From: an uncultured delta proteobacterium
GTDB lineage: Bacteria > Myxococcota_A > Polyangia > Fen-1088
Length of the DNA: 64,000 nucleotides
Direction: 5' to 3'
Assembly (NCBI GenBank): GCA_963782545.1
Contig: CAWAKD010000007.1
Coordinates: 1,104,378-1,168,377, forward strand
Below, one piece after another: positions 9,144-61,848 of this stretch. Position 1 is the stretch's first letter. Every line of letters starts with the position of its first letter. Both the position numbers and the translations under genes were made by a program. Under the pieces are notes generated by a model that was not told the origin of the DNA, searched no databases, and saw only the letters and a list, made by a program, of their open reading frames with translations.

Positions 9144-11741
<2,598 letters not shown>

Positions 11742-11821
11742 GGTTTCTGCGCAACAAGGTAAGCACGGGCCGCATGAGGACAAGGAATGTGCCACCGGCG
11801 CGCCATGGGCGGTTGGCGTGC

Positions 11822-12583: not shown

Positions 12584-12633
12584 GCTTGAGCCAGAAGCAA
12601 GATTACGTCAAGCACCGAGGGCGTGCTCGCCCG

Positions 12634-14085: not shown

Positions 14086-14144
14086 ATTTTAGCAGGCCCG
14101 TGGCGTCAGGATAATTAACCACGGAAATCAAACCGTTCGCTGTT

Positions 14145-14633
14145 CTAGTAGCGAACCTTCCCGGGAACCTCGGCGTAAGCCACGAACGGCGCCTCGGCGT
14201 CCGCGCAAAGCACGTGCTCGCGCACCATCGGCGGTTCGCCACCCGCGGCGTCGAACGCTCGATAGAAAACCGCATCGTCGAAGCCGGCGGAGGCGGCGGA
14301 CTGGCGCGTGGCCGCGTAGTAGACGGCGCGCGGCCGTGCCCACAGGATGGCGCCCAGACACATGGGACAGGGCTCGCAGCTCGCGTAGACATCGCAGCCA
14401 TCGAGCTGAAAGGATCCGAGCGCGGCACACGCGGCGCGGATGACCTGCACTTCGGCGTGCGCGGTCGGGTCGTTGTTGGCCACCACCGCGTTGGCGGCCT
14501 TGGCGATCACGACGCCGTCCTTGACCACCACCGCGCCGAACGGCCCGCCCTGCCCCGTCTGTGCGCCGCGCACGGCCTCGGCGATGGCCAAGCCCAAAAA
14601 ACGCCGTTTGTCGTCCAGCGATGGCACGCTCAC
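14145..14633 (-). CDS. CMP/dCMP-type zinc deaminase (TadA/GuaD-like nucleoside or nucleotide deaminase).
   Basis: C-terminal 162 aa of track ORF 14145..15566. Zinc motifs HAE and PCPMC. The GTG start overlaps the yggS stop as GTGA. Confidence 0.75.
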   Translation of the reverse strand: MSVPSLDDKRRFLGLAIAEAVRGAQTGQGGPFGAVVVKDGVVIAKAANAVVANNDPTAHAEVQVIRAACAALGSFQLDGCDVYASCEPCPMCLGAILWARPRAVYYAATRQSAASAGFDDAVFYRAFDAAGGEPPMVREHVLCADAEAPFVAYAEVPGKVRY

Positions 14634-15355
14634 GTGCGCGCTCCGAAGATCGCGGTGCCCACGCGGATGATGGTCGCGCCCTCGGCGATTGCCACCTCCA
14701 GATCGTGGCTCATGCCCATCGAGAGGTCGGCCAACACCACGTTGGGACGGAGCCGCTCGCGCTGCTCGTCGCGTAGCCGGCGCAGGGCCGCGAAGTGTGG
14801 CCGCGACAGCGCCGGATCTTCGTCGTAGGGGGGAATGACCATCAGACCCGTGCAACGCACGTGCGAATACCGAGCGAAGCTGTCGAGGGTGGCTGCCAGG
14901 TCCGAAGGTGCGATGCCGCTCTTTTGCGCCTCGCCGGCCACGTTGACCTGAACCAGGCAGTCTTGAACCACGTCGAGAGCGGCAGCCTTGCGTTCGATCT
15001 CGGCCAGGACCTCGGGCGAACCGACCGAGTGAACCAGCACCACCTTGCCAGCCACGTACTTGACCTTGTTGCTTTGCAGCGGCCCGATGAAATGCCAGCG
15101 CGGCGACGGCAAGGCCGGCAGGGCGGCGACCAGGCCGGCCACTGCCGCGTGCTTGTCGCGGAACTCCTGCCCATAGCTCTCGGCGAAATCGCGCTGTCCA
15201 GCGGCCAGCGCCGCGACGATGTCCTCGGCGGGAACGGTCTTGCTGACCGCGAGCAGACACAGGGTTTCGGAGGAGCGGCGTATGGCCCGGAGGGCGGCAT
15301 CCACCCTCTTGCGCACCGCGTGCAGATTGACGGCGATCTGCTCGGCTCGGGTCAC
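14630..15355 (-). CDS. yggS: YggS-family PLP-binding homeostasis protein (alanine-racemase fold).
   Basis: C-terminal 241 aa of track ORF 14630..16270 (LLAVSKT...FIGPLQSNK...LSMGMSHD). The GTG start overlaps the maf stop as GTGA. Confidence 0.8.
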   Translation of the reverse strand: MTRAEQIAVNLHAVRKRVDAALRAIRRSSETLCLLAVSKTVPAEDIVAALAAGQRDFAESYGQEFRDKHAAVAGLVAALPALPSPRWHFIGPLQSNKVKYVAGKVVLVHSVGSPEVLAEIERKAAALDVVQDCLVQVNVAGEAQKSGIAPSDLAATLDSFARYSHVRCTGLMVIPPYDEDPALSRPHFAALRRLRDEQRERLRPNVVLADLSMGMSHDLEVAIAEGATIIRVGTAIFGART

Positions 15356-15966
15356 GGCGAAACCCCGAAGGCCGGTGGCGGATAGCCCGGCAAGGCTTCG
15401 AGCGCGCGCAAGTCGGCCAGAACCTCGGCCACCGGAAGGCCGACGACGTTGGTGAACGAGCCGCGCACCTCGGTGACGAAGCTGCCCGCGATGCCTTGGA
15501 TCGCATACGCGCCGGCCTTGCCGCGCCACTCGTCCGAGGCCAGATAGGCCGCGACTTCCGCAGCATCGAGGGAGCGGAAGGTCACGAAGGTGCTCACGAG
15601 CCGCTCGACCGCGCGCGCGCCCAGCCGAATGCGATAGGCGGTCAGCACCTCGTGGCGGCGCCCGGCCAGGCGCTGCAACATCGCTTCGGCCTGCGCCCCG
15701 TCGACGGGCTTGCCGAGGATTTCGTTCTCGATCGAAACGACGGTGTCGGCGGCCAACACCGCCAGCGCGGCGGGGCCGTGGCGAGCGACCGCAGCGTCGC
15801 ACTTCTCGGCGGCCATACGCACGGCGTAGTCGCGCACGGGTTCGCCCTCGCGCGCGGCCTCGTCGATGTCGACCGGCTCGACGGCGAGAACCAGACCCAG
15901 CTTCGCCAGCAACTCGCGCCGCCGCGGCGACGCCGAGGCAAGTATGAGATCGGGGGAACGGCTCAC
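15352..15966 (-). CDS. maf: Maf-family nucleoside triphosphate pyrophosphatase (septum-formation protein Maf).
   Basis: LILASASPRRRELL...GKP...YAIQG motifs. Start placed at the internal GTG (VSRSPDLIL). Using the track's upstream ATG would overlap the divergent radical SAM gene. Confidence 0.8.
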   Translation of the reverse strand: MSRSPDLILASASPRRRELLAKLGLVLAVEPVDIDEAAREGEPVRDYAVRMAAEKCDAAVARHGPAALAVLAADTVVSIENEILGKPVDGAQAEAMLQRLAGRRHEVLTAYRIRLGARAVERLVSTFVTFRSLDAAEVAAYLASDEWRGKAGAYAIQGIAGSFVTEVRGSFTNVVGLPVAEVLADLRALEALPGYPPPAFGVSP

Positions 15967-16118
15967 GATGCGGAGAGTATATCGTCCCGGTGAACGCGGC
16001 ACCAAACTCAGCCCGGTGGCCCGCGATAACTGCAGGCAGGCGAGGTCGTGGTCGTGGTCGTGGTTGGGAACGGGCTCTAGCCCAGTGCCAAACTCCGTGG
16101 CATGAATAGGCGGAAAGG

Positions 16119-17231
16119 ATGACGCCGACACTCGAACGACCCGCGATCCTGCGCTGGCTCTCCGAAACGAACGCCTCGCGGCTCGGCGAGCTGTGGCAGG
16201 AGGCCGACCGCGTGCGCAAGGAGCATGTGGGTGACGAGGTGCACCTGCGCGGTCTCATCGAGATTTCCAATCACTGCCTGCGCCAGTGTCACTACTGCGG
16301 GTTGCGCGCGGGCAATCGCGACATCACGCGATACCGGATGACCGAAGACGAGATCGTAGCCTGCGCGAAGCAGGCCCGAGATCTGGACTACGGGACGGTC
16401 GTGCTACAAGCCGGCGAGGACGAAGAGCTCACTCTCGGCTCCGTCGCTCAGACCATCAGACGCATCAAGGCCGAAACCGCCTTGGCCGTCACCTTGAGTC
16501 TGGGCGAGCGCACGGTCGACGAACTGCGCGCCTGGCGCGAGGCGGGGGCCGATCGCTACTTGCTCCGCTTCGAAACCTCCAACAGCGACTTGTTTTCGCG
16601 CATGCATCCGCCGCGCGGCGGACGGCGGCCGTCGCGCATGAGCCTGATTCGCCAGCTCGGGCCGCTCGGCTACGAGGTGGGAAGCGGCGTCATGATCGGC
16701 ATTCCGGGCCAGAGCTACCAGGATCTGGCCAACGACCTCGATCTGTTCCGCGCGCTGGACCTGGACATGATTGGGGTCGGCCCGTTCATCCCCCACCCCG
16801 CCACGCCGCTTGGCCAAGTCGAGCGCGCAGCTTCCGAGAACCAGGTGCCGGCCAGCGAGCTCATGACCTACAAGATCATGGCCCTCGCGCGCTTGTTGTG
16901 CCCGCGGGCCAACATTCCCAGCACCACCGCCCTGGCCACCCTGAATATCGACCAGGGTCGCGAACTGGGCTTGCAGCGCGGCGCCAACGTCGTCATGCCC
17001 AACCTGACGCCGCCCGCGTACCGGCTTTACTACGAGATCTATCCGGGCAAGGCCTGCGTGCGCGAAACCGCTGACCTATGCAATCGCTGCATTACCGGCC
17101 GGATCGAGAAGCTCGGGCGCGAGATCGGCAAGGGGCCAGGCCCCTCGCCCAATCGGCGCCGCCGTGACCTGGACAAGAGGACGCAGCTCGAAAGGGTCGC
17201 GGCGAGAACACGCGCCCCACGCCGGCCCTGA
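16119..17231 (+). CDS. Radical SAM enzyme of the HydE/BioB/ThiH family, closest in motif spacing to [FeFe]-hydrogenase maturase HydE.
   Basis: IEISNHCLRQCHYCGLRAGNRD (CxxxCxxC), then VVLQAGEDEE...LRFETSN...IGIPGQSYQDLANDL...MIGVGPFIPHP. GGAAAGG RBS. Confidence 0.75.
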   Translation: MTPTLERPAILRWLSETNASRLGELWQEADRVRKEHVGDEVHLRGLIEISNHCLRQCHYCGLRAGNRDITRYRMTEDEIVACAKQARDLDYGTVVLQAGEDEELTLGSVAQTIRRIKAETALAVTLSLGERTVDELRAWREAGADRYLLRFETSNSDLFSRMHPPRGGRRPSRMSLIRQLGPLGYEVGSGVMIGIPGQSYQDLANDLDLFRALDLDMIGVGPFIPHPATPLGQVERAASENQVPASELMTYKIMALARLLCPRANIPSTTALATLNIDQGRELGLQRGANVVMPNLTPPAYRLYYEIYPGKACVRETADLCNRCITGRIEKLGREIGKGPGPSPNRRRRDLDKRTQLERVAARTRAPRRP

Positions 17232-21138: not shown

Positions 21139-21158
21139 GTTCATAGAGGTTCATAGAG
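21139..21158 (+). promoter_or_regulatory. Perfect tandem direct repeat GTTCATAGAG x2, 7 nt upstream of the ATG of the downstream fibro-slime gene.
   Basis: Seen directly. The 10-bp period resembles OmpR/PhoB-type response-regulator direct-repeat sites; the core TCATA resembles a Pho box half-site. Confidence 0.3.
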
Positions 21159-21165
21159 ATTCTCC

Positions 21166-23149
21166 ATGCGGTCCTTTCCACCTTTGCTGCTCGTCGCGGT
21201 TTCGGGTTCCCTATTCATGGTCGCGTGTGTGTCGGCCAACATCATTCAGACGGGCCCCACGGGTGGAGGGGGCGATGAGGCCGATGCAAACACCATCCAT
21301 CTCGATGCGCCATCGACAACTTTCAAGCTCGATGGGAGCACTTTGTCGCGCGCCGGATCTGACGCTCCTCCCGGACCGAATTGCGGCAACGGCGAGCGGA
21401 CCAGCGACGAGGCCTGCGACGACGGCAATACGGTATCGGGCGACGGCTGCGCCAACAACTGCCTCAGCGTCGAGCCGGGTTTTTCGTGCGTCCCCCCAGG
21501 AAAGCCCTGCCGCCCGGTGGCTCGCTGCGGTGATGGCTTGGTGGTGTTCCCCGAACAGTGTGACGACGGCAACCTTGCAGCCGGCGACGGCTGTTCGGCC
21601 GGCTGCAAGGTCGAGATCGGCTGGAAGTGCGATGGCAACCCCAGCACCTGCTCGCACACCACATGCGGCGACCACACGATCGAAGGCGCCGAGGGCTGCG
21701 ACGACGGCAACAGCATGCCCTTCGACGGCTGCTCGGCCGATTGCCAAAACGAGCCCTCCTGCAAAGGCAGCGGCGCCTGCACCTCGCGATGTGGTGACGG
21801 CATCGTGCTAAACGAGGAATGCGACGACGGCAACAACACCGACGGCGACGGTTGCTCGCACGACTGCAAGATCGAGTCTGGTTTCAAGTGTTCGCAACCC
21901 GATATCGGCGACAAGATGATGGTGCCGGCCGTGTACCGCGACTTCAACTACCACAACCCGACCGACTTCGAGGCCGGGGTCACCGGTTCGAAGACCCCCA
22001 CCACGGGCCTGGTCAAGAGCGACCTCGATGCCAACGGCAAGCCGGTGTACACCGGGGTCACCGGCAACGCTGTTCACATCGAAAGCGCAGCCTCGCTCGC
22101 CAAGTGGTACACCAACGTCGACGGAGTGAACCACGCGACCACGGGCAAGCTGACCCTGTGGGACAACGGCAAGGGCGGCTACGTGAATCGGTACAAGGAG
22201 GACGGAACCCAATACTTCAACACCGAGCCGGCCTACTACTGCGGAAACGTCGGTTCGGAGAAGACCGACGCCAACGGAGACCCGATCCCGTGCACCTCCA
22301 TGTACGCGACGGCCACCAATTGCGACGAAATGGCCGCCAAGGGCGAGGAGATGCTGCCGGGGAGCTGCATCTCCACCAACGGTTCGTACAGCGCCAAGTT
22401 CATCGTTTCGAAGATGGATGGCAACCCTTGCTTCTTCCCCGTCGACAACGACAACTTCTCGAAGGACAGGAATTACGCCGCAGATTCCTCCCTACTACGA
22501 CGCCTCGAAGTCGTGGCCGAAACAGGTCGACGACGCCGGGAACGTGATCATGCACAACTTCAGCTTCACCAGCGAGGTGCGCTACTGGTTCAAGTTCGAC
22601 AAGAGCAAGACCTACACCCTCGACTTTACCGGCGACGACGATGTCTGGGTGTTCATCAACGGCAAGCTCGCAGTCGACCTGGGCGGCATCCACTCGCCGG
22701 TCAGCGGCAGCATCGTGATCGGCTCGAACGGCAACGGTACCACCACGGTGACCTCGTACGATGACCAGGGCGTCGCCACCACCCCGACCACGTCGACCGC
22801 CGACCTCGGCTTGCAGGACGGCAAGGTTTACGAGGCCGCCGTCTTTCAAGCCGAGCGCCAGACCACCGGCTCGTCCTACAAGTTGACACTGAGCGGCTTC
22901 AATGCCGCACCCAGCGACTGCCACCCCGATTGCGGCGACGGCGTTCTGGAGATCGGCGAAGAGTGCGACGATGGTCCGGACAATGGCAAGGGTGGCTACG
23001 GCAGCTGTGGTGCAGACTGCACCTTGCAGGCCGGCTTCTGCGGCGACAACGTGGTCCAGGAGGGCGAGGACTGCGACGAAGGCGCCCTGAACGGCACCGG
23101 CGCCGACCACTGCCCGTCCGGTTGCCACTACCTCATCCCGATTCTCTGA
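21166..23149 (+). CDS. Second Cys-rich-repeat + fibro-slime domain secreted protein, a paralog of the gene at 24..2022. A +1 frame change falls inside the fibro-slime domain near 22470-22495.
   Basis: ORF 21166..22764 (signal MRSFPPLLLVAVSGSLFMVACVSA, four CGDG..CDDGN repeats, start of fibro-slime YRDFNYHNPTDFEAG) continues in ORF 22418..23149 (HNFSFTSEVRYWFKFD..GDDDVWVFINGKLAVDLGG, then C-terminal repeats). Confidence 0.8.
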
Positions 23150-23207
23150 TTCATCGCTGCGGGGACTGGCAGCGCGGCACGAAGTCGTCGTACACTCGGG
23201 CATCTCC

Positions 23208-24473
23208 ATGCTCGACATTCGACTCGTCCGTGAAAAACCCGATGAGGTCCGCGCAGGGCTGCGCAAGCTGGCCGCGGACGTGGACCTCGACGCCCTGCAT
23301 CGCCCTCGACGAGGGCGTGCGCAAGCTCAAGAACGATTCCCAGGCCATCCAGGCCGACCAGAATCGCCTGTCCAAGGAAATCGCCAAGGCGCCCAGCCCC
23401 GAAGCGCGTGCGGAGATCAAGGCCAAGGGCGCCGCACTCAAGGAAAGGAACGAGCAGCTGCTCAAGGATCTGGCCGCGCAGGAGGCCGCTCTCGACGAGA
23501 AGTTGCTGGAGTTGCCCAACCTGCCCCACCCGTCGGTGCCCGTGGGCAAGGATGAAAGCGAAAACCGCATCGTGCGCGAGGAAGGCGCGAAGCGCGCCTT
23601 CGCCTTCACCCCGAGGCCCACTGGGATCTGGGTCCGCGCTGGGGCATCATCGACTTCGACCGCGGGGTCAAGATCTCGGGCAGCCGCTTCTACGTGCTCA
23701 AGGATTGGGGCGCCCGCCTGCAACGCGCGCTGATCTCGTTCATGCTCGACCTGCACACCCGCAAGCACGGCTACACCGAGGTCCTGCCGCCCTACATGGT
23801 TCGACGCGAGTGCCTGGTGGGCACGGGCAATCTGCCCAAGTTCGGCGACAATCTGTACCACGACGCCAGCGAGGATTTCTGGTTCATCCCCACCGCCGAG
23901 GTGCCCGTCACCAACCTCTACCGCGATGAGGTTCTCGACGGCGCACGGCTCCCCATCAAGCACGTGGCCTTCACCGCGTGCTTCCGCCGCGAGCAGATGG
24001 CCGCCGGCCGCGACACCCGCGGCATCAAGCGCGGCCACCAGTTCGACAAGGTCGAGCTGGTCAAATTCGTCAGGCCGGAAAACTCCATGGACGAGCTCGC
24101 TGGGCTGCTCTCCGACGCGGAGGATGTCCTCAAAGCGCTGGAGCTCCCCTACCGCGTGGTCGAGATGTGCACCGGCGACCTTTCCTTTTCGGCTATGGTC
24201 AAGTTCGACCTCGAGTTGTGGGCGCCCGGCTGCGGCGAATGGCTCGAAGTCAGCTCGTGCTCGAACTTCGGCGACTTCCAGGCTCGTCGCGCGAAGATCC
24301 GTTTCAAGGATGGCAAGGAGAAGAACCGTTTCGTCCACACCCTCAACGGCTCCGCTTTGGCCTTGCCAAGAACCCTGATTGGTGTTCTCGAAACCTACCA
24401 GCGGGCGGATGGAAAGCTAGACGTCCCCCTGGCGCTTCGACCATACTTCGATGGTATCGACGTGCTCGGGTAG
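23208..24473 (+). CDS. serS: Seryl-tRNA synthetase. The reading frame is broken twice (about 23300 and 23618) and restored.
   Basis: N-terminus MLDIRLVREKPDEVRAGLRKLAADVDLDAL (frame 0); coiled-coil arm IALDEGVRKLKND...AFAFTPRP (frame 1, track ORF 22930..23733); catalytic core HWDLGPRWGIIDFDRGVKISGSRFYVLKDWGARL...FRREQ... (frame 0, ORF 23694..24473). Confidence 0.85.
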
Positions 24474-47814: not shown

Positions 47815-48999
47815 ATGAAGATCGCCATCGTCACCGAGTACTACTACCCGACCTTGGGAGGAATTCAGGAACACGTTCATCATTTCGCCCGCACTGCACG
47901 CAAGCTGGGCCACGACGTGCGCATCATCGCGCCGGCAGTCGAAGACGGTCTGGCTTCCACGCGCCGTCGCGGCCCTGCGGCGAATGAACGCTCGATTGAC
48001 GAGCAGAACGGTGTCATCCGCATCGGAAGCTCCATTCCACTCTTGTCCGGCGGCTCGATCGCCCGCGTGTCGGTTGGAACCGCCCTGTCGCGGAAGATCG
48101 TCGATGTCTTGCGAGCCGAGCGATTCGATGTCTTGCACACGCATTCACCGCTGATGCCCACCTTGCCGCTGCTCGCGTTGCGCGCGTCCGATTGCGCGAA
48201 CGTGGGGACTTTTCACAGCGATTTCGAGCGCAACATCCTCTACTTTGCCCTCGCCCATTTCTTACAGCCGTACGTGGACCGCCTCGACGCCGCGATTGGT
48301 GTGTCGGAAACCGCACTGCGCGGATTGCGCCACTATTTCAAGGCTCGCTGGCGCGTGATCCCCAATGGCGTCGACGTGTCGATGTTCAGCTCGGGGCAAA
48401 GGCGACCAGAGTTCGACGACGGTCGGCTCAGCGTGCTTCACCTCGGCCGCTTCGACCCGCGCAACGGCGTGGACCGCGTGATCAAGGCATGGGTCGCCGT
48501 GCGCAGGTCCGGCACGGACGCGCGTTTGATCCTGGTCGGTGATGGGCCCTTGCGGCCCACGTACGAATCGATGGTTCCGTCGGATCTCCGCGCCGACGCA
48601 CATTTCGTCGGCTTTGTCGAAAGCGACGAACGTCCATCGTACTACGCTTCCGGCGATGTGTTGCTTTGTCCGGCGGTTGGCGGAACCTTCGGCATCATCG
48701 TGGTCGAGGCGATGGCGGCAGGTTGCGCCGTGGTCGCGGCGGACACGCCTGGGTTTCGCAACGTCATGGAAGACGGCGTGCAGGGGTTCATGGTCGACGT
48801 CGCCGCCGACCCGACCTGCGTGCAACTTGCAGAGCGCACCCGACAATTGCTGGACGATGCCCGCTTGCGCCAGCGTTGTGCCGAAGCCGGCCGTAGGGCC
48901 GCAGCGCGATTCGATTGGCCAGCGGTCGCCGATCAGGTTTTGCGCGTCTACGGCGAAATTCTTGGCGGAACGGAGATCGCAAGTTGCGCGAACCGATGA
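47815..48999 (+). CDS. Glycosyltransferase family 4 (PimA-like).
   Basis: MKIAIVTEYYYPTLGGIQEHV...; C-terminal EX7E region (FVESDERPSYYASGDVLLCPAVGGTFGIIVVEAMAAG). Confidence 0.85.
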   Translation: MKIAIVTEYYYPTLGGIQEHVHHFARTARKLGHDVRIIAPAVEDGLASTRRRGPAANERSIDEQNGVIRIGSSIPLLSGGSIARVSVGTALSRKIVDVLRAERFDVLHTHSPLMPTLPLLALRASDCANVGTFHSDFERNILYFALAHFLQPYVDRLDAAIGVSETALRGLRHYFKARWRVIPNGVDVSMFSSGQRRPEFDDGRLSVLHLGRFDPRNGVDRVIKAWVAVRRSGTDARLILVGDGPLRPTYESMVPSDLRADAHFVGFVESDERPSYYASGDVLLCPAVGGTFGIIVVEAMAAGCAVVAADTPGFRNVMEDGVQGFMVDVAADPTCVQLAERTRQLLDDARLRQRCAEAGRRAAARFDWPAVADQVLRVYGEILGGTEIASCANR

Positions 49000-50555
49000 G
49001 AGTCAGCGCGTCTGCCGCAGGTATCTGGCGCTCCCGAGCGTGGGTCATCGCCATTGTCTGCTGCGGGCTCCGTGCCGTCTCGCTCGTGCGGGTCTGCCTT
49101 TCGGACGACGAGGCCATCTACGCCGTTGTCGCCCGGGAAATGCTGGCAGGCCGGACCCTGTATCGCGATGTCGTCGATCACAAGCCGCCCCTCATCTACT
49201 TGGTCTACGCCTTCACCCAAGCCGTCGCCGGATTTCGCGGCGGAATGCTGCTCTTGCATCTGCTGGCCATCGCCGCGGTCTTTGCCACAGCGCTGGTGCT
49301 CCGGCGCATCGTTCATGAATTTGCCGGCCTGCCAGCCGACTCGCGCGCGCCATTTTGGGCAGCTCTTCTTTATGCGGTCTTCACAACCACGCTTCTGCCC
49401 TTCGATGCCTTGGCGGCAAATTGCGAATTGTTCATGATGCTGCCGCTTTCCGCATCCGTGCTGTTCTTCCTGCGCGGCGCCGGCAATCTGCGCACGCGCC
49501 CACTTCTTGCCACCGGCGCGCTGGTCGGTATTGCCGCCCTTTTCAAGTACCAGGCTGGCGTGCAGCTGGCCCTCTATGGGGCAAGCCTGACCGCCGCACA
49601 CTGCCGACGGATATCTCGGGTCCTGCTGGCGGGTGCAGCCATTGGCGTCGGCGTGGCTGCGGTGTTCGGGATTGCGCTCGCCCTCATGCAGTCCGCCGGG
49701 AGCCTCGACGCCGCATGGTTCTGGTTTCGCTTCAACTTCAGCTACATCAAGACCGGCTTCCATCCCATGGACACGGTCAAACGAGCGACGATCCGCATTT
49801 CCTTCGTGTCCGGCGCGGCGGCCTTTCTGTGGATTCTCGCAACGGCAGCGGCATTCAAGTCGATCAGGGCAAAGCCGGAGCAAAGCGGCGTCGGCTTCAT
49901 TCGTGTTGTCTCCCTTTGGGCCCTTGTCAGCGCGTTGGCCATCACCACCGGCGGTCGCTTCTTCGGTCACTATTTCCACCAAATCACCGCACCCCTGGCC
50001 GTGCTGGCGGCGCCCGCTGCCGCGCGGCTCTGGCGAGCCCGCCGGCGCCTCGTGATGACCGCGGTGGGGGGGCCGGCGGCCGCGTTCCTCCTGCTGGGCA
50101 TCTTCGATGTCCCGGTATTCGCCGCCGTGGGCGAGCCAGTGCCCGACTACCGGCGCATGGCCGACCTTGTCGAGGCAAACGCGCGGCCGGGCGACGGGCT
50201 GGTCGTGTGGGGCAACTTGCCGGTTCTCTACTTCCTGGCCGAGCACCCGCTTGGCACGCGATTCGTCTTTTCGAATTACATGACCGGACTTTCACCAGCC
50301 ACGCCATCGCAATCGGATCCCTCGGTCGATGCCTCCCCCAACATCGTCCCAGAGAGTTGGGCCATGTTCGAGGCGGATATCGCCAAGCGAAGGCCGCGTA
50401 TTCTCGTCGATACGTCGCCTGGCAATGTGGCGGCGTACGGTAAGTTTCCACCGTCGAGTTTTCCACGCTTGCAAGCCCTTCTCGACCGCGCCTATCGGCC
50501 CGTGGGCGAGACCGCCGGCGTTCGCGTCTTCGTCCGCCGAGAAGGGGCCGACTGA
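48996..50555 (+). CDS. ArnT/PMT-like (GT39/GT83-type) polytopic membrane glycosyltransferase.
   Basis: ATGA overlap with the GT4 gene. DEAIYAVVAREMLAGRTLYRDVVDHKPPLIY loop motif; about 11 TM helices. Confidence 0.8.
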   Translation: MRVSASAAGIWRSRAWVIAIVCCGLRAVSLVRVCLSDDEAIYAVVAREMLAGRTLYRDVVDHKPPLIYLVYAFTQAVAGFRGGMLLLHLLAIAAVFATALVLRRIVHEFAGLPADSRAPFWAALLYAVFTTTLLPFDALAANCELFMMLPLSASVLFFLRGAGNLRTRPLLATGALVGIAALFKYQAGVQLALYGASLTAAHCRRISRVLLAGAAIGVGVAAVFGIALALMQSAGSLDAAWFWFRFNFSYIKTGFHPMDTVKRATIRISFVSGAAAFLWILATAAAFKSIRAKPEQSGVGFIRVVSLWALVSALAITTGGRFFGHYFHQITAPLAVLAAPAAARLWRARRRLVMTAVGGPAAAFLLLGIFDVPVFAAVGEPVPDYRRMADLVEANARPGDGLVVWGNLPVLYFLAEHPLGTRFVFSNYMTGLSPATPSQSDPSVDASPNIVPESWAMFEADIAKRRPRILVDTSPGNVAAYGKFPPSSFPRLQALLDRAYRPVGETAGVRVFVRREGAD

Positions 50556-53158
50556 TGGGCTTGGGTGCGACGGCGGCGGCGAACGGCGACACCGACGGTG
50601 GCCAAGCCTTGCCGAGTCGCCTTCATGGCTACGTCGACTTTCTCGCACGCCGCAGTCTGCCGATTTCGATCGGCGCGCTGGTTCTGTTCGTGCTCGGCGT
50701 TGCAGCGGCTTCCCGCCTGCAGTTGAGGTCGGACTTCACGGAGTTGCTTCCCGAGGACGATCCGGAAGTCGCACGATTGAAAGACCTGGGCGACAAGATC
50801 GGCACGCCCTCGACGCTGGTCGTGGCCGTCGAGGGACCCGATCCGACCTCGAACGAGAGCTTTGCCGAAGCGCTGGTCGAGAACCTGCGCCCGCTGATCG
50901 GCACGGATCTGCGGGCGATCGACTACCGCGCAGACGCCAGCCGTCCGTTTTTCGAGCGCAACCAGGCGCTCTACGCGAATTTGCGAGACCTGCAACGTAT
51001 CGACGACGACGTCAAGAAGCTGATCGTTTCCAAGAAGAATCCGATGTTTCTGCCCTTCGCCGATCCCGACAAGGGCGAGGTGGACGACGACCCGGCCACG
51101 GATCTGCGCAGGCTTAGGCAGCAGCTGGAAACGCAGAAACCCAGAGGCGCCTTTCCATCCGGCTACTACGAAACCTCGGACCGGCGTCTGCTCGCCATCA
51201 TCACCTGGACGGTTTCGTCCGGGACCGGCGATTGGTCCGGCTTTCGCATCCGCGACGACGTGCAGCGGGTCATCGAGCAGACACATACGGCGTCTTTCGG
51301 CGACGTCAAGGCAAGCATCACCGGCGATGTCGCTACCGCCATCGAAGAGCACGACGCGCTCAAGTCCGACATCGCGTGGGTCTCCATCGTGTGCACGGTG
51401 CTGGTCTTGCTGGTGATCATGCTGTATTTCCGCAGCATCATCGCCCTTGGTTACGTTTTCTTTCCCACTCTGCTCGGGGTGGCCGTCGCGTTCGGCATCA
51501 CCGCCTTGACGATCGGCTACCTCAACACCAACACCGCCTTCCTTGGCTCGATCATCATCGGCAACGGCATCAATTTCGGCATCATTCTGCTTGCCCGCTA
51601 TCGCGAGGAACGACAGGGCGCCCCGACCGATCCGCCGACCAGTGCGATGACCAAGGCCATCGCGGCGACCGTTCGCCCGACGCTCGCCGCCGCGCTGGCC
51701 GCTGGCATCGCCTACGCCAGCCTGACCTTGACCGGTTTCCGCGGATTTCGCCAATTCGGGTTCGTCGGCGGAACGGGCATGGTCCTCTGTTGGCTGGCGA
51801 CGTACAGCTATTTTCCGGCCCTGGTCTTCTTCTGGGAGAGACTGCGCAGAAACCCCGCACCCAAACCCCAGTCTTCCCACCGTCGGCTGGTTGCCGTCGC
51901 GAATTCCCTGCTGAGGCATCGACGCATGCTGATTGGACTCGTAGCTGCCGTCAGCCTCCTTGCGGCGTGTGTCGTGGCGCCATTGCTGTCGAACCCGTTC
52001 GAATATGACTTCTCCAAACTACGCAACCAGCACAGTCGCAAGCACGGCGCGGGCGAGCTGTACGCACGGGTTGGCAAGATCTTTCCGCAGGACATTTCGC
52101 CGGTCGGCGTCGCGCTCTTGGCGTCGCCCGAAGATGCGGCCCTTTACGCCCAAGCCGTCCTCGAAAAGGACTGTAGGGACGGCCTTTCGCGTGCCCATTC
52201 GAGCGTTGCAGCGAGCGCCGCGACCCTGGCCCGGGAATGTGCGCGGCGAGTCGCCGCCGGGGAGCCCACCGGAGGTCTGCTTTCCAAGGTGTCGACGGCG
52301 TTCGACTATCTGCCCAAAGACCAAGACGTCAAGCTCACGCTGATAGCCGACATCCGCAGGCGCCTGAGTGACCGAGCCCTACAGACCGTATCGGAGGCAG
52401 ATCGCAGACTCGTCGCAGATTGGATGCCTGCCGCCAATCTTCACCGGCTGACACCGGCCGATCTGCCGGAGGCGATTGCGCGGCGATTCCGCGAGTTCGA
52501 CGGCACCGTCGGTCGGGTGGCCCTGCTCTTTCCCGTTCGCGTGTGGGCGAATTGGGATGGGCACAACTTGATCCGTCTTGCGGACGTGACCAAGGACGTT
52601 GTCCTGCCCAGCGGCCACGTCGCATCAGCCGCGGGGCACACCTCGCTGTTCGCGGCCATGCTCCGCTCGATTGCGCACGACGGCCCCATCGCGACCGTGG
52701 CAGCCATGATCGGCGTCGCCATCATGGTGCTGCTGCTCTTCCGCAACCTGCGCAGCACGGCGATGGTGCTCTTGTCGCTGGGCGTGGGTGTGTTGTGGAT
52801 GGGGGGAGCGGGCGTGCTCCTGCACATGAAGCTCAATTTTCTCAATTTCGTGGCGTTGCCGATCACCTTCGGTATCGGCGTCGATTATGCGGTCAACATT
52901 TTCGCACGCATGGCCAGTGAGCCGCCGGAACGGCGCGCGCATGCGCTTGCGGAAACCGGGAGCGCGGTCGCGCTTTGTTCCTCGACCACCATCATCGGCT
53001 ACAGCTCACTCCTCATCGCATCCAATGGTGCACTGGTTTCCTTCGGCAAACTTGCGAATCTGGGCGAGGTCGGCTGCCTACTTGTTGCGCTCCTGCTGGT
53101 GCCCTCGGTCTCCAGACGCCACCGTGCCAAGCGGGCCATGCAGGCAACCCCGGTCTGA
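50555..53158 (+). CDS. MMPL/RND-superfamily lipid exporter (HpnN-like).
   Basis: 867 aa with two 6-TM bundles and two periplasmic domains; start overlaps the upstream stop (TGATG). Confidence 0.8.
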   Translation: MGLGATAAANGDTDGGQALPSRLHGYVDFLARRSLPISIGALVLFVLGVAAASRLQLRSDFTELLPEDDPEVARLKDLGDKIGTPSTLVVAVEGPDPTSNESFAEALVENLRPLIGTDLRAIDYRADASRPFFERNQALYANLRDLQRIDDDVKKLIVSKKNPMFLPFADPDKGEVDDDPATDLRRLRQQLETQKPRGAFPSGYYETSDRRLLAIITWTVSSGTGDWSGFRIRDDVQRVIEQTHTASFGDVKASITGDVATAIEEHDALKSDIAWVSIVCTVLVLLVIMLYFRSIIALGYVFFPTLLGVAVAFGITALTIGYLNTNTAFLGSIIIGNGINFGIILLARYREERQGAPTDPPTSAMTKAIAATVRPTLAAALAAGIAYASLTLTGFRGFRQFGFVGGTGMVLCWLATYSYFPALVFFWERLRRNPAPKPQSSHRRLVAVANSLLRHRRMLIGLVAAVSLLAACVVAPLLSNPFEYDFSKLRNQHSRKHGAGELYARVGKIFPQDISPVGVALLASPEDAALYAQAVLEKDCRDGLSRAHSSVAASAATLARECARRVAAGEPTGGLLSKVSTAFDYLPKDQDVKLTLIADIRRRLSDRALQTVSEADRRLVADWMPAANLHRLTPADLPEAIARRFREFDGTVGRVALLFPVRVWANWDGHNLIRLADVTKDVVLPSGHVASAAGHTSLFAAMLRSIAHDGPIATVAAMIGVAIMVLLLFRNLRSTAMVLLSLGVGVLWMGGAGVLLHMKLNFLNFVALPITFGIGVDYAVNIFARMASEPPERRAHALAETGSAVALCSSTTIIGYSSLLIASNGALVSFGKLANLGEVGCLLVALLLVPSVSRRHRAKRAMQATPV

Positions 53159-53464
53159 ATTCGGGCGGATGTGCCGCTGTCCGAAACCTGACACCGGTTG
53201 ACGGCGCTCAACACGATCTGACATCCGCGCCGCATGTTTGCGGCGACTCGATGGCTGGCCGCTCGATTGCATTCGAGCTTCGACCATGGACCGCATAGCT
53301 ACTGCCACCAAGAAAGCCTGGGCCATGGTGACGCTCCTCGCGTCAACCCTGCTGTCTTACGCGAAGATCGTCGGTGTCGTTGTTTCCGAACGGCTCTGGC
53401 GAATTCCGCAGCGCCACCTTCGCACGGCAGGAGATTTCGCACGCAGCGCTGGCAGGAGGATGTC

Positions 53465-54370
53465 ATGAATTTTCTGGCGAGACTCGGCGGCTCGTCCGCG
53501 GACCTGATCTTCCTCGTCTCCTTTTCGGCCGCCGCATTGGTCCCCTTCGCAACCTACGTCTGCCTCTGGCTCTTGGGCGTAGAGTCTTTGCCCCCCCCGA
53601 AGGACGAAGGCGCAGGCCGTCGCCTGCTCGGCCCGCTCTTCATCGGCTTCTACTATTGGCTGCTCGGTCCGTTCCTCCACTTGGCCAAGCGCACCGGGCT
53701 TACCCCGAACCAGTTCACGCTGGCGTCTCTGGTGGCGAGCATTCCCACGGGTCTGGCCATCGCGACCGGGCACTTCGCGCTGGCATCCGTGCTGCTCATC
53801 GTCGGGACCACGCTCGACGTGGTGGACGGGCATCTCGCGCGCAGCAAGGGCCTGGTCAGCAAGGCAGGCGCGTTCCTCGACTCCACCGTCGATCGCGTCT
53901 GCGACGGTATGATCCTCGGCGGATTCGCGGTGTATTACGCAGGGACGCCAACCCTATTGGCGGCGCTGGGCGCATTGATCATGTCGTTCGCCACCAGCTA
54001 CGCGCGCGCACGCGGCGAGTCGCTCGGGGCCTCAGGCTCGGAAGGCCTGATCCAGCGGGCCGACCGGCTGGTCATTCTGAGCTTGGCCCTGGCCCTGTCG
54101 CCCTGCTTGGGACACCGCATGGAAGGCTTCGTTCCCCATCCTTCTTACGCGATTGCGAAAGCCGCTCTTTGGCTACTCGCGATCCTGAGCACGTTCACGG
54201 CAGCCACGCGCGTCGCATGGATCATGAAGAAGTTACAGCCGAAAGGCGCGGAGGCGGCCAGGCCCGTGGCGCTTTCCGTGCGAGCCATCCGCCCCTTTGC
54301 GGTCACCCCAGTCCACTCCCTCACAACCACGGATGCGGGAAAGACGCCAACAGGGCCAGCCGATGCCTAG
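53465..54370 (+). CDS. CDP-alcohol phosphatidyltransferase-family enzyme.
   Basis: Signature DVVDGHLARSKGLVSKAGAFLDSTVDRVCD, i.e. D-G-x2-A-R-x8-G-x3-D-x3-D. Confidence 0.8.
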   Translation: MNFLARLGGSSADLIFLVSFSAAALVPFATYVCLWLLGVESLPPPKDEGAGRRLLGPLFIGFYYWLLGPFLHLAKRTGLTPNQFTLASLVASIPTGLAIATGHFALASVLLIVGTTLDVVDGHLARSKGLVSKAGAFLDSTVDRVCDGMILGGFAVYYAGTPTLLAALGALIMSFATSYARARGESLGASGSEGLIQRADRLVILSLALALSPCLGHRMEGFVPHPSYAIAKAALWLLAILSTFTAATRVAWIMKKLQPKGAEAARPVALSVRAIRPFAVTPVHSLTTTDAGKTPTGPADA

Positions 54371-55455
54371 CAGCTCCGGGGCCGAAGAGTCGACCACTCG
54401 GCGGGCAGCATGGTGGGGGCTCGGCCTACGTGGGCTGATACTGTCTGCCGCTCTGGTCTTCCTGGTTCGAGGCGTACACTGGCATGACATGAGCGGCGCA
54501 ATTGGACGGTCCGGCTTTCTGTTGCCAGCCGTCGTGGTTGCCATGAACGCCTGCATGATGAGCCTTCGGGCACTGCGACTGCGTATCCTGCTCCAGGGAA
54601 ACATCTCTTTCTCTTCGTCGTTCGTGACCCTGTTGACCTCGTCCGCAATCAACAACATCACGCCATTCCGCGGTGGCAATGTGGCGCGCCTGTGGATGCT
54701 CGAACGTGCCGCCGGGGTGACCAAGTCGGCCGCAATTGCGCTGACCGTGGTCGAAAATCTGCTCGAAGTCCTAGTGTTGGCGGCGGTTGGCTTCGCGGCA
54801 TCGTGGTTCGTTGCAGGTCAACGCTGGGCCGCCGTCGCGACCCCCGTGGTGTTCTCGGCCGCCATCGCCGTGCTGGTCCTGCTGCGAGTGACCGCCGGAC
54901 GCGCGGCCGACTCGGCCACGGCGGCTCGTCCAGGCCTCGGCTGCCCAGGTTGGATTCGAGAAAGCCCGCCGGCTGCGCGCGCGGCTCGAACCTGGCGTTC
55001 GTGCGCTGTCGAAGCCAGGTGTCCCTGCACAGGCGTTGCTGCTGTCGCTTCTGGCGTGGACCTGCGAGGCGACCATGATCCTCATCTGCGCGCGGTCGAT
55101 GGAGCTGCGAGTTTCTTTTGCGCTGGCCACGGTCGTATTGCTCGGAATCAACCTGGCGCTCGCGTTGCCGTCGACCCCGGCCGGGGCCGGGCCGTTCGAG
55201 GGCGCGGCGGTCGCGGTCCTCATGCTGGCTGGCGTCGCCAAAGGCCCTGCCGTCGCCTTCGCGCTTTTCTATCACGCGATTCAGGTCATTCCGGTGACGT
55301 TGGCAGGAGTGACCGTCGTGCTATCGACGAAGCGCCGGCAAGCGCGCCAAGCGGGCCGACTCTTCGCGGCTCCTAACTGCGCCGCTGTCTGCCCCAGCGC
55401 AGAAAGCGCAGGTCGATGTGGCGCCGCTCGGCGACTTCCGCGGCCTTGTGCATGA
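54363..55455 (+). CDS. UPF0104/MprF-flippase-like (LPG-synthase TM domain) membrane protein. Frame break near 54890-54920; the 3' end is uncertain because it overlaps the convergent gene.
   Basis: N-terminal half in ORF 54297..55376 (from MPSSSG); C-terminal half in ORF 55036..55455 (LLSLLAWTCEATMILICARSMELRVSFALATVVLLGINLALALPSTPAGAGPFE). ATG overlaps the upstream stop. Confidence 0.65.
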
Positions 55456-58782: not shown

Positions 58783-58956
58783 GGTGAGCCACGAGGCTCC
58801 CCTACCAGGGGCCGAACGAGAAATTTCCGCATGGGGCACTCGAAATTGTGAGGGCCCAAGCCCCCGAGACCCGCGAGCGAGGCCGAGAATCGAGCGAAGA
58901 TGGGGTGCGATTCGCGTGGCCCAGATCTTGCTTTTCGCAGGAGCCGAGGAGCCATT

Positions 58957-61848
58957 ATGACGAAGCGAGCCGGATATTCCCTTCAGACCTCTGTCCTTGG
59001 CGGTGCTGCCATCCTTATACTTGCCGGCTGTGGTGGGATCACCCCGGCTGGTGGCGCGGGGGGCAGTGGAGGTGGCGCGGGCGGTGGTGCAGGTGGCGGT
59101 GGTAGCGGCACGAGCGGTGGTGCCGACGCGGGTGCTGCTGTGGATGGCGGCAGCCTTGATAGTACCGTCAGCCCGCCGTCGAGCCTCGCCGCGTACACGC
59201 TCAGCTACCGCAGCCAAGTGCGTGTCCCCGCGTCCGGTGCGGTCATGAGCTACGACGACTTCGCGGCGCAGGTCAGCCGATTGGACCCGCTCGCAGCCAA
59301 GCGCTGTCCGGTCAGCAACGACGCTGAATTTCAGACCGCCGTCGACGCCTTGGGCGGGATCAACTGGACCCACCCCGTCGACATCCTGAAGGACCTCAGC
59401 CAGCCTCCCCTCTACCGTGGGCATATTCCCCCCGCGCCACCCTACCCAGCGACGAGCGCGGCGGGTGCAACCAAGGATTCTGCGACGCCCACCATCGAGC
59501 GGCCCGACCTGGTCGGATACCAAGACAACACCGCCATCTTCCTTTCCCAGCGCCATGGCCTGCTCGCCGTGAACACCGCGGGGGAAAGGCCCGTGCTGAG
59601 CTGCGCCCTCAAGCTGCCCGGCAGTCCCAAGTACTTCTTCTACCACGGCAATGAAATCGTCTTGCTCGTCAATGGCATGTCCGTGAACGAAGCCGCTCTC
59701 CTGCGCTTCGGCGTCACCCCCACGGGCTTCGACTTCCTGGATGCGGTCATGCTGGACAACCAACAGATCCAAGATGCCCGCCTGTTCGACAGCACCCTGG
59801 TGATCTACGCCACCCTCTACAGCCCACCCGCTCCCGCCACGAGCTCCAACCCAGATGGAGGTGGCGTCGCCGCACCCGTCAGGAGCACTGCCGTCGCCGC
59901 CACGGGCGTGAAGGTGACCGTCGTGAAATGGGGCGCGCAGCTCAGCCTCGCCTGGGAGGAGGAGCTACTCAACGATCACACCAGCTCGGATCCCTTGGCC
60001 GGGCAGGACCTCGCTACGGCCGTGCAGCAGCTGACCGTCGGACAGGTCGTGGCGACCTACAAGAGCTACAAGCCATTCATCAGCGCCAGCGATAGCTACT
60101 TCGTGGTCAGCCGCGACGTCAGCAAGACGGTCTTCACCGGCACCCAGTCCCAGACCTATTCCTACTGCACCGCCAGTCACCCAGGCCCGGAGCACAGCGT
60201 GGAGTACTGCTATCCGAAGTACGAGCAGCGTGCGAATCCCGACTACAAGGATCCGCAATCCACCAAGGGCGACTATCCCTGCAACGGAAAGACGCTGCTC
60301 GATTGCATCCAGGAGGCAGCCCCCCAGGTCAGCAAGTACATCTACGTTCGCGTCGGGGAAACTTGCAACACGTACACCTACCACGACTACATCTGCGACA
60401 GCACGGAAACCCGGACGGTATCGTACCCGACCTACCGCACGGATACCGCCACGCAGTTCGTGGTGTGGCGCTACACCGACGGTGACTTCGTCAAGCTGGA
60501 CGAGCAGTTGTTCGAGATGGCGTCCCCAGGGACCACCACCGGCAGCGTGCCCTCGTTGACCTTCACCGGCGCGCCCCTGGAGGTCAGCGGGTCCATCGAC
60601 AGCAAAGGCGACCTGCAGTTCCAGCACGGGCAGTTCTACGTACTCACCAACCAGGGGCAGGCGCTGCACACTCTGCTCATTGCGGGCAACTCCATCGCCG
60701 AGCTGGGCGTGCAAGCGATACCGCGTCAGGGAGGAACCTACTCCTATTCCGGATCGCACTCGACCCTCTTCTCCGACACCCGCATGATGGTCTCGCGCGC
60801 CTACTACGACTCCACGGCGCCGCAAGGGATCAGCACCTGGTCGGACGTCATCATGATGGACCTCGGCGCCCCGTCGTTCCCGACCCAGATCAACCACTTC
60901 GGGATGCCGGGATCCAGCACCCAGCTCATCCTGGCCGGTGCCGGCGTCCTCGGCCCGGGCACGGTGAGCTTCACCAGCAGTGGCGTCGCGCGGAATCTGC
61001 AGAAGATCACGCTGTTCGATCAGGACAACGCCAGCGAGGTGGACAACGTCCTCTTGGGCACCGAATACAACGCGGACTTCACCCAGACCTGGCTCGGCAC
61101 CGCGGACGACCAGCGCATCCGTCTCGACTGGGGCAGCCAGCGTCTGTTCATGCCCTACGCGGGCTATCTTCACGCGCCCGATGCCATCTTCAATCCCGCC
61201 GCGCACCGTCTCAACATCACGGCGGTTGGCGTAGGCACGGGGCTTTCGTCCGAGATGACCTTCAACCTGGTCGAGGACGTCGTTCGCACCGTCTCCACCG
61301 ATTCGTCGCCAACCGCCGGACGCGCGCTGGCCTTTGGTGATTCGTCGATCTATGCCTTGGGCCAAGGCGCGCAGGGCTGGTCGCTGGACGTCCTCGAGGA
61401 ATACGCCACCCCCATCGCCGTGTATCGCATCAACGACACAGGCGACGTACACGCTCGCATCGACCGGATCGGCGCGCGCTGCGAGATTTCGACCTTCAGC
61501 GGGAGTCTCAACGCGTTCGCCCCGACTCAGCTGGCCACGGGGCCGACCATCGCCTGCCCGGAGTCTGGCTCGCCGATGGCCATCGGGCTCGACATCGTCT
61601 TCTCCGGCTCATCGACCGGCTGGCGCCTCGGTCCCGATGGCCTGTCCATCACGCCGCTCACCGCCGACGAGGTCAAGGAAGCGCTCACCCACGTGCGCAA
61701 TGACGAATACTGCGCGCTCGACGGAACCAAGGACGACGGCACCCCGGTCCCCTACCTCGACGCCGTGCCCACCTCCGTCCAGTGCTTCCCGTGGCAAACC
61801 GGCGTTGCCGTCGGCCCACTGCCTGGTGGAAGCACGGCGACGAACTAG
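58957..61848 (+). CDS. Large (963-aa) hypothetical lipoprotein.
   Basis: GAGGAG RBS; MTKRAGYSLQTSVLGGAAILILAGCGG lipobox; Gly-rich linker; then about 880 aa with no motif I recognise (many Cys, Tyr, Thr). Confidence 0.7.
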   Translation: MTKRAGYSLQTSVLGGAAILILAGCGGITPAGGAGGSGGGAGGGAGGGGSGTSGGADAGAAVDGGSLDSTVSPPSSLAAYTLSYRSQVRVPASGAVMSYDDFAAQVSRLDPLAAKRCPVSNDAEFQTAVDALGGINWTHPVDILKDLSQPPLYRGHIPPAPPYPATSAAGATKDSATPTIERPDLVGYQDNTAIFLSQRHGLLAVNTAGERPVLSCALKLPGSPKYFFYHGNEIVLLVNGMSVNEAALLRFGVTPTGFDFLDAVMLDNQQIQDARLFDSTLVIYATLYSPPAPATSSNPDGGGVAAPVRSTAVAATGVKVTVVKWGAQLSLAWEEELLNDHTSSDPLAGQDLATAVQQLTVGQVVATYKSYKPFISASDSYFVVSRDVSKTVFTGTQSQTYSYCTASHPGPEHSVEYCYPKYEQRANPDYKDPQSTKGDYPCNGKTLLDCIQEAAPQVSKYIYVRVGETCNTYTYHDYICDSTETRTVSYPTYRTDTATQFVVWRYTDGDFVKLDEQLFEMASPGTTTGSVPSLTFTGAPLEVSGSIDSKGDLQFQHGQFYVLTNQGQALHTLLIAGNSIAELGVQAIPRQGGTYSYSGSHSTLFSDTRMMVSRAYYDSTAPQGISTWSDVIMMDLGAPSFPTQINHFGMPGSSTQLILAGAGVLGPGTVSFTSSGVARNLQKITLFDQDNASEVDNVLLGTEYNADFTQTWLGTADDQRIRLDWGSQRLFMPYAGYLHAPDAIFNPAAHRLNITAVGVGTGLSSEMTFNLVEDVVRTVSTDSSPTAGRALAFGDSSIYALGQGAQGWSLDVLEEYATPIAVYRINDTGDVHARIDRIGARCEISTFSGSLNAFAPTQLATGPTIACPESGSPMAIGLDIVFSGSSTGWRLGPDGLSITPLTADEVKEALTHVRNDEYCALDGTKDDGTPVPYLDAVPTSVQCFPWQTGVAVGPLPGGSTATN

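Follow-up and report, generated by a model that had tools for sequence, protein, structure and literature searches.

We analysed a 64-kb stretch of DNA from an uncultured soil myxobacterium (contig CAWAKD010000007.1 of assembly GCA_963782545.1), referred to throughout, at its full length of 64,000 nucleotides, as the window. Our subject is a conserved six-gene operon at positions 47815-55455 (+) of this window, whose gene content suggests a role in the synthesis, flipping and export of an inositol-based glycolipid.

Organisation of the gene cluster

All six genes lie on the plus strand and run in one direction. The first (47815-48999) encodes a 394-amino-acid (aa) glycosyltransferase of family GT4 (GT-B), which Pfam and a search of the PDB place as PimA-like, and is followed by a gene (48996-50555) for a 519-aa membrane glycosyltransferase, assigned to the GT-C fold (ArnT/PMT-like) from an AlphaFold2 (AF2) model searched with Foldseek. 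Next come an 867-aa RND transporter of the HAE3/MMPL type (50555-53158; Pfam, NCBIfam and PDB search), a conserved small open reading frame (ORF) for a 60-aa micro-protein (53286-53468; gene calls and DNA alignment), a 301-aa CDP-alcohol phosphatidyltransferase of the PIPS/AIPS type (53465-54370; Pfam, NCBIfam and PDB search) and an MprF-type flippase-like (PplT/UPF0104) membrane protein (54363-55455), which is frameshifted in the window and 363 aa long where intact.

The sequence-only reading of this DNA had named five gene families here, and Pfam bore out every assignment (Glyco_transf_4/Glycos_transf_1, PMT_2, MMPL, CDP-OH_P_transf and LPG_synthase_TM), that of PMT_2 at a sub-threshold score. 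It had also described the genes as translationally coupled across overlaps or very short gaps. Read from the DNA, the GT4 and GT-C genes share an ATGA overlap (48996-48999), the GT-C and RND genes meet in a TGATG with a 1-nt overlap (50553-50557), and the CDP-alcohol and flippase-like genes overlap by 8 nt (54363-54370); the small ORF joins the CDP-alcohol gene through a further ATGA, and a GGAGG lies just 5' of the CDP-alcohol start. Coupling therefore holds at these overlaps, but the step from the RND stop (53158) to the CDP-alcohol start (53465) is not a very short gap: it spans 306 bp and contains the 60-aa ORF, which raises the gene count from five to six. A scan for promoters and terminators returned sites no more frequent than in shuffled sequence, and no paralogue of any cluster gene was found elsewhere in the 64-kb window.

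The CDP-alcohol enzyme and the micro-protein

The CDP-alcohol enzyme, which carries an N-terminal extension of ~65 aa, matches Pfam CDP-OH_P_transf (PF01066) with 56.9 bits (cut-off 22). Among NCBIfam models it scores 135.8 bits against AIPS (NF040950; cut-off 180) and 127.9 bits against PIPS (NF045883; cut-off 170), as opposed to 18-28 bits against the PgsA models, 25 against PssA and 25 against ClsA. Its closest solved relative is mycobacterial PgsA1, a phosphatidylinositol phosphate (PIP) synthase (E 2e-18). The family signature D(x)2DG(x)2AR(x)8G(x)3D(x)3D is kept, with LDVVDGHLAR-SKGLVSKA-GAFLDSTVDR aligning to the PgsA1 motif. We mapped the PgsA1 alignment onto the residues of Mycobacterium tuberculosis PgsA1 for which a phosphate-binding pocket has been described (PMC6506517), and found the inositol-phosphate pocket (S132, Y133, K135, R137, R152, R155, R195 and R94) to be wholly conserved, K135 being present as R. 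The enzyme is most likely an inositol-phosphate-using protein of the PIPS type, PIP-synthase-like and not PgsA-like. A near-identical protein is labelled by JGI as a CDP-diacylglycerol--glycerol-3-phosphate 3-phosphatidyltransferase, and this public PgsA label is probably wrong.

The small ORF directly upstream encodes one predicted transmembrane (TM) or hydrophobic helix followed by an ERLW-type motif, and has no Pfam match. It is called as a gene on an identical Logan contig and as genes of 71-72 aa on two other contigs, and seven homologues were found in metagenome protein sets. When its DNA was aligned with that of the two closest relatives, all indels were in-frame and the changes mostly synonymous. 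An ORF with the same helix and ERLW-type motif lies directly 5' of the CDP-alcohol gene in all Polyangia-type loci (described below), usually in ATGA coupling, and it keeps this place even where the CDP-alcohol/flippase-like pair has moved or switched strand. The micro-protein may serve the PIPS-like synthase as a subunit or help to assemble it.

The PimA-like GT4 glycosyltransferase

The GT4 protein matches Pfam Glyco_transf_4 and Glycos_transf_1 with E-values of about 1e-29. Its closest solved relative is PimA of M. smegmatis, aligned end to end (residues 1-385) with an E-value of 6e-50, compared with about 1e-14 or worse for other solved GT4 enzymes. A match to the GpgS-type NCBIfam model (66 bits, cut-off 480) reflects generic similarity only, and a defence-system reading, raised by a weak match to the GT4-conflict Pfam family, was set aside for the same reason.

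The residues reported to be critical for the activity of PimA are Y9, Q18, Y62, N63, R68, H118, R196, E199, R201 and E274 (PMC9202250). The window protein keeps PimA residues Y9, G15, G16, Q18, R68, H118, R196, R201 and E282, and departs from PimA at Y62 (S), at N63 (G), and at E199 and E274, the latter being the first Glu of the EX7E motif, both of which are absent; N97 of PimA is likewise lost. Its sugar donor is probably not GDP-mannose, because the residues that contact GDP-mannose are replaced (K202 by N, D252 by E, D253 by S, K256 by R and S275 by T, with E274 missing). The replacements are the same in all Polyangia-type orthologues, and the protein looks like a member of a distinct, maintained subfamily.

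The GT-C glycosyltransferase

The second protein scores 23.7 bits against PMT_2 (PF13231), just under the cut-off of 26.1, and many of its orthologues have a precomputed PF13231 match. It has no NCBIfam match, and a sequence-profile search of its family against the PDB found no match to any solved structure. The AF2 model (pLDDT 85.6, pTM 0.88) gave ArnT (5f15) as the top Foldseek match (E 8e-7, TM-score 0.59), followed by the oligosaccharyltransferases (OST) PglB and AglB, AftB, Emb and PMT; all 15 matches with E <=1e-3 were GT-C enzymes. As modelled, the protein of 48996-50555 has a GT-C fold of the ArnT/PMT/OST class. In GT-C enzymes the catalytic acidic motif lies in the first extracytoplasmic loop, and here D37-D38-E39 stands directly after the first TM helix and is invariant in 26 homologues.

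The GT39 label that had been attached to this protein is not established, its basis being only the GT-C fold with ArnT as the top structural match. Public pipelines name the orthologues '4-amino-4-deoxy-L-arabinose transferase-like', and the sequence-only reading had likewise offered aminoarabinose-type lipid modification as one option. We rejected an aminoarabinose pathway because neither the cluster nor the other ORFs that were scanned contained Arn partner genes (ArnA/B/C/D type).

The RND transporter and the flippase-like protein

The RND protein is matched twice by the Pfam family MMPL. Its highest NCBIfam score is to HpnN (TIGR03480; 233.7 bits, cut-off 751.85), ahead of BstA (175 bits) and HAE3 (168 bits); a second HpnN model (NF052374) gives 137 bits against a cut-off of 1100, and HpnN is also the closest PDB match (E 8e-25). 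By these comparisons the protein is classed as an HAE3/MMPL transporter and not as an orthologue of HpnN.

In the window, the flippase-like gene is split, positions 4-173 of LPG_synthase_TM (PF03706) matching in one frame and 213-302 in another. A 9.7-kb Logan contig assembled from short reads (L001, run ERR11571143) is 99.99% identical to the window with a single gap, and the only difference over 9,718 aligned positions is an extra T at 54955 (+) of the window, which is absent from L001 and breaks the frame. The gene on L001 is intact, encodes 363 aa and aligns without gaps to the orthologue in L002; its product passes TIGR00374 (66.9 against 43.2 bits, profile positions 8-316 of 323). Judged from these matches, the protein belongs to the MprF-type flippase domain family (PplT/UPF0104), with lipid translocation as a putative role.

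The frameshift at 54955 is most likely an assembly indel error, because the near-identical contig is intact and because the reading frame of the window's essential seryl-tRNA synthetase gene (serS, about 23207-24473, +) likewise changes twice within ~400 bp, once near 23300 and once near 23560. On the same grounds, a true pseudogene was judged less likely. Other apparent pseudogenes in the window call for caution, given the likely indel errors in serS. At 55373-55455 the flippase-like ORF overlaps a convergent NTP_transf_5 gene by 83 nt; the last ~30 residues of the ORF are unconserved in the orthologues and look like read-through past the end of the conserved protein.

Conservation and related loci

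The GT-C protein has hundreds of homologues, nearly all from uncultured Polyangia. A genome scan yielded 79 loci, all from metagenome-assembled genomes (MAGs) of Myxococcota except for a few from Acidobacteriota. Synteny was counted with phmmer, the window proteins serving as queries against six-frame ORFs located no more than ~10 kb from the GT-C gene. Among 15 Polyangia-type loci, GT4 was present in 14, RND in 14, and the CDP-alcohol and flippase-like genes in 12 each, and all four partners were found at every one of the four Haliangiales-type loci. The Kofleriaceae-type loci (n = 22) had GT4 in six, RND in 16, and the CDP-alcohol and flippase-like genes in one each. A second, paralogous locus type (n = 37) had GT4 in 25, the flippase-like gene in 23, RND in one and the CDP-alcohol gene in none.

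Gene calls made independently on other contigs, with Pfam labels, show the same order as the window, small ORF included. The partner proteins at the Haliangiales-type loci are 28-34% identical to those of the window (the GT-C protein 52%), and their order and strand differ; the GT4 there is also PimA-like (E 1.5e-46) and the CDP-alcohol enzyme also PIPS/AIPS-like. That the five families still occur together after rearrangement and deep divergence speaks for a functional link among them. Conservation of synteny across Myxococcota had been proposed as a check on the cluster, and it is found, rearranged forms included, in the Polyangia-type and Haliangiales-type loci.

The second locus type (L037-L062, L066-L070 and L074-L080; for example L053:10001-13607) occurs in the same genomes and repeats the triad of GT-C, GT4 and flippase-like genes, with a GT-C protein 32-43% identical to that of the window and the GT4 gene on the opposite strand. 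Its GT4 is also without the first Glu of the EX7E motif.

Further genes accompany the cluster in relatives. A 554-aa protein adjoins the GT-C gene in L004 (12590-14251, -), L005, L014, L015, L017, L020 and L082 (17192-18853), and is not present in the window; its N-terminal half is uncharacterised and has Cys pairs, and its C-terminal GT2 domain is nearest to polyprenyl- or dolichyl-phosphate sugar synthases such as AglJ, PpgS and ArnC. Between the GT-C and RND genes, several relatives (L006:10941-12668, L007, L013, L026, L034 and L071) encode a polytopic, GT-C-like membrane protein of ~550 aa that matches neither Pfam nor NCBIfam and could be a further glycosyltransferase or a polymerase; many paralogous loci carry distant copies of it. 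L082 also encodes a second PMT_2-like protein and another GT4, and L008 adds enzymes of the sugar-modifying kind, namely a UDP-GlcNAc 2-epimerase, a GDSL hydrolase, a Gfo/Idh/MocA oxidoreductase and a class-III aminotransferase. Such a modular make-up is in keeping with a glycolipid whose glycan varies between lineages and with a GT-C enzyme that draws on a lipid-linked sugar donor.

In L026, a 5-kb stretch between the GT-C and RND genes (11500-16640) has a G+C content of 0.60, lower than the ~0.72 of the corresponding gap in the relatives L006, L007 and L034. Its ORFs are similar to toxin-antitoxin genes and to a group II intron reverse transcriptase, which suggests that a mobile element has inserted here.

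Discussion

A proposed glycolipid pathway and its alternatives

We put the chances at about even that the operon builds a glycolipid on an inositol phospholipid, comparable to the phosphatidylinositol mannosides (PIMs), flips it and exports it to the outer membrane. As indicated by its conserved catalytic and pocket residues, the PIPS-type enzyme would join CDP-diacylglycerol (or a CDP-ether lipid) with inositol phosphate to give PIP, perhaps together with the 60-aa micro-protein. The inositol-phosphate synthase and the PIP phosphatase would have to be encoded elsewhere, and dephosphorylation would precede the GT4 step, in which the PimA-like enzyme would add a sugar to the inositol head group at the cytoplasmic face, on the inner leaflet. 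By analogy with MprF and with the gpgSDF operon, the flippase-like protein could then move the glycosyl-phosphatidylinositol (glycosyl-PI) to the periplasmic leaflet, where the GT-C enzyme would extend the glycolipid, presumably from a polyprenyl-phosphate sugar. By analogy with HpnN and BstA, the HAE3 RND transporter may finally pass the finished lipid toward the outer membrane. What we observe are the subfamilies, the retained catalytic and pocket residues, the translational coupling and the conserved co-occurrence; we infer which substrates and sugars are used, in what order the steps run, which proteins flip and export the lipid and where the product ends up.

Of the two lipid modifications to which the sequence-only reading had likened the operon, the PI/PIM type has gained ground, given that NCBIfam and PDB comparisons find the CDP-alcohol enzyme PIP-synthase-like and the GT4 specifically PimA-like. 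The logic of flipping before extension, also put forward there, has precedents in the gpgSDF and hexSDF operons and in fusions of GT-B and PplT domains. The operons gpgSDF of Pseudomonas aeruginosa and hexSDF of Clostridioides difficile combine GT4 and UPF0104 genes, the flippase role of GpgF being only predicted (PMC12713373), and natural GT-B/PplT fusions exist (bioRxiv 10.1101/2022.03.11.483950).

Several observations weigh against the proposed pathway. The GT4 is without Y62, N63, E199 and E274, which are reported to be essential in PimA, and as it fails this test of critical residues a role as PI mannosyltransferase should not be taken for granted. The scores of the CDP-alcohol enzyme against PIPS and AIPS are both under the NCBIfam equivalog cut-offs, and the flippase-like gene is broken in the window assembly. 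A search of the window and the related loci with an unverified M. tuberculosis Ino1 sequence gave no inositol-phosphate synthase (MIPS), and the Pfam scan, which covered most ORFs of the window, returned no PIP phosphatase, PatA-like acyltransferase or polyprenyl-phosphate GT2. At the Kofleriaceae-type loci the GT-C gene stands near an RND gene in 16 of the 22 and a CDP-alcohol gene is nearby in only one, so the GT-C/RND pair can exist without an adjacent PI module. The case as a whole is built on sequence, and all the relatives are uncultured MAGs.

The Kofleriaceae-type counts leave room for the main alternative, which we regard as unlikely, namely that one transcript carries two modules: a PI/glycosyl-PI module made up of the small ORF, the PIPS-like enzyme, the PimA-like GT4 and the flippase-like protein, and a separate GT-C/RND module serving another hydrophobic substrate, such as a polyprenyl-linked glycan, a sterol, a carotenoid or another outer-membrane lipid. 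GT-C and RND form the most widely conserved pair, the CDP-alcohol/flippase-like pair has been relocated as a block together with the small ORF (L004, L005 and the P0020 contig), and the nearest named relatives of the RND protein move hopanoids and sterols, all of which favour such a division. Against it, the GT4, GT-C and RND genes overlap in the window, coupling the PimA-like gene to the GT-C/RND pair, the Haliangiales-type loci keep the five families side by side in spite of rearrangement, and GT-C at the paralogous loci is accompanied by GT4 and the flippase-like gene without RND.

It is distinctly improbable, in our judgement, that the GT-C enzyme acts on a non-lipid or lipopolysaccharide (LPS) acceptor, through ArnT-like decoration of lipid A or core or through PMT-like O-glycosylation of envelope proteins, with the PI-derived lipid serving only as a membrane component or sugar carrier. 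ArnT as the top structural match, with oligosaccharyltransferases and PMTs behind it, and the aminoarabinose transferase-like public names of the orthologues would suit such a role, but there are no ArnA/B/C/D-type genes in the cluster or among the scanned ORFs, no solved GT-C enzyme is matched at the sequence level, and nothing in this reading accounts for the lasting association with a PimA-like GT4 and a lipid flippase-like protein.

Ordinary phospholipid metabolism, with the CDP-alcohol enzyme acting as PgsA in a generic envelope operon or the genes belonging to an HpnN/HpnL-type hopanoid transport context, is very improbable indeed: the JGI name of the near-identical protein favours the former and the top NCBIfam and PDB match of the RND protein the latter, but standard phosphatidylglycerol (PG) synthesis was rejected on the competitive NCBIfam scores (PgsA 18-28 bits, PIPS and AIPS 128-136) and the conserved inositol-phosphate pocket, and the hopanoid context on HpnN scores far under their cut-offs (234 against 752 and 137 against 1100), on the flippase-like protein having no match to HpnL and on the lack of hopanoid biosynthesis genes among the window ORFs scanned. 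These two contexts had been named beforehand as outcomes that would speak against a dedicated glycolipid operon, and neither emerged from the NCBIfam scores or the Pfam scan of the window ORFs.

Relation to known systems

The closest known system to the proposed glycolipid pathway is the PI/PIM pathway of Actinobacteria, with its pgsA1-patA-pimA operon and the later action of PimE, MptB and other GT-C enzymes. The two share a PIP-synthase-type enzyme with the same motif and pocket, a GT4 nearest to PimA and a periplasmic GT-C enzyme acting after a presumed flip. They differ in that the host of the window is Gram-negative (Myxococcota), that there is no PatA-type acyltransferase and no PimB', that the window GT4 has lost E274, E199, K202, Y62 and N63 of PimA, that the window GT-C belongs, unlike PimE, to the ArnT/PMT/OST structural class, and that the micro-protein, the RND transporter and the flippase-like protein of the window cluster have no place in the actinobacterial operon. 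As the GT4 fails the PimA residue test, PatA and PimB' are missing and the GT-C class is unlike that of PimE, we do not count the cluster as a member of the actinobacterial PIM pathway, whose opening steps it would nevertheless resemble.

With gpgSDF and hexSDF the cluster shares a head-group-glycosylating GT4 encoded together with a UPF0104/PplT flippase-like protein; those operons, however, act on PG or glucosyl-diacylglycerol, include a deacetylase and have no lipid-synthase gene, GT-C or RND (PMC12713373). The HAE3 shuttles HpnN and BstA resemble the RND protein in size (~870 aa), MMPL architecture, top sequence similarity and presumed inner-to-outer-membrane lipid transport, but the scores are far under the family cut-offs, no hopanoid or sterol genes lie nearby and the coupled genes are glycolipid genes. 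The ArnT/ArnC system of lipid A modification has in common with the cluster a GT-C fold nearest to ArnT and, in relatives, an ArnC/Dpm1-like GT2 encoded beside the GT-C gene, and differs in that ArnT is not matched at the sequence level, ArnA/B/D genes are missing and the window has no GT2. The inositol-lipid cluster of Bacteroides (MIPS, PIPS and PIP phosphatase) shares the production of PI by a bacterial PIP-synthase route outside Actinobacteria, but it feeds sphingolipid and PI pools and has no PimA-like GT4, GT-C, RND or flippase-like gene (PMC9246714). In Myxococcus, ceramide phosphoinositol is a known inositol lipid (PMC9246714).

In the literature consulted, PI is described as typical of Actinobacteria and Bacteroidota, and our literature searches for PIM or PimA in Myxococcota gave nothing relevant. 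For a PIPS plus PimA-like core joined to a flippase-like protein, an HAE3 RND transporter and a micro-protein, we could find no described counterpart. PIM-type glycolipids count, as far as we are aware, as a hallmark of Actinobacteria, and we know of no identified flippase or exporter for the mycobacterial PIMs, lipomannan (LM) and lipoarabinomannan (LAM). A wider suggestion, offered tentatively and in our view somewhat unlikely, is that PI-anchored glycolipids, equivalent in Gram-negative bacteria to PIM and lipomannan, are produced in uncultured Polyangia and Haliangiales by a self-contained line in which a PplT/UPF0104 protein and an HAE3 RND transporter would be the candidate flippase and exporter and the micro-protein a candidate, so far unrecognised partner of the PIP synthase.

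If this is true, PI-anchored glycolipids could be a major component of the outer membrane in these two groups, and the conserved PIPS plus PimA-like cluster would extend inositol glycolipids to a Gram-negative phylum. Lipid flipping and the transport of glycolipids from the inner to the outer membrane are generally poorly understood, and an operon that joins synthesis, flipping, periplasmic extension and export, as proposed here, would provide testable candidates for both. A further outcome of the analysis is a conserved family of micro-proteins associated with a phospholipid synthase, together with a correction to the PgsA annotation in public data.

Flanking genes and the remainder of the window

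The cluster is flanked by genes for an aldo/keto reductase, ETF-QO, an NTP_transf_5 protein, an MsbA-like ABC transporter, a 982-aa protein, an AlkP-family phosphodiesterase and a sulfatase fragment. The sequence-only reading had suggested that the phosphodiesterase and sulfatase (61.8-64 kb) could belong to the same envelope-remodelling locus; neither recurs beside the cluster in any related locus, even the closest, and we do not uphold the link. Linkage of the NTP_transf_5, MsbA-like ABC transporter and 982-aa genes was rejected likewise, as none recurs beside the cluster in relatives; the rest of the flanking genes, too, are missing near the cluster at every related locus.

The remaining window consists of housekeeping genes, and scans of the window for tRNAs and Rfam families gave no match. 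The 982-aa ORF (58900-61848, +) has high GC content at third codon positions (GC3) and no Pfam or NCBIfam match; its exact protein sequence was not found in the public assembly index, where another start may have been called. DUF4215 repeats, which we take to be cysteine-rich repeats typical of myxobacteria and which would agree with an origin in Myxococcota, occur in the proteins encoded at 973-2022 and 21157-22764 (+), one of which also carries a PA14 domain.

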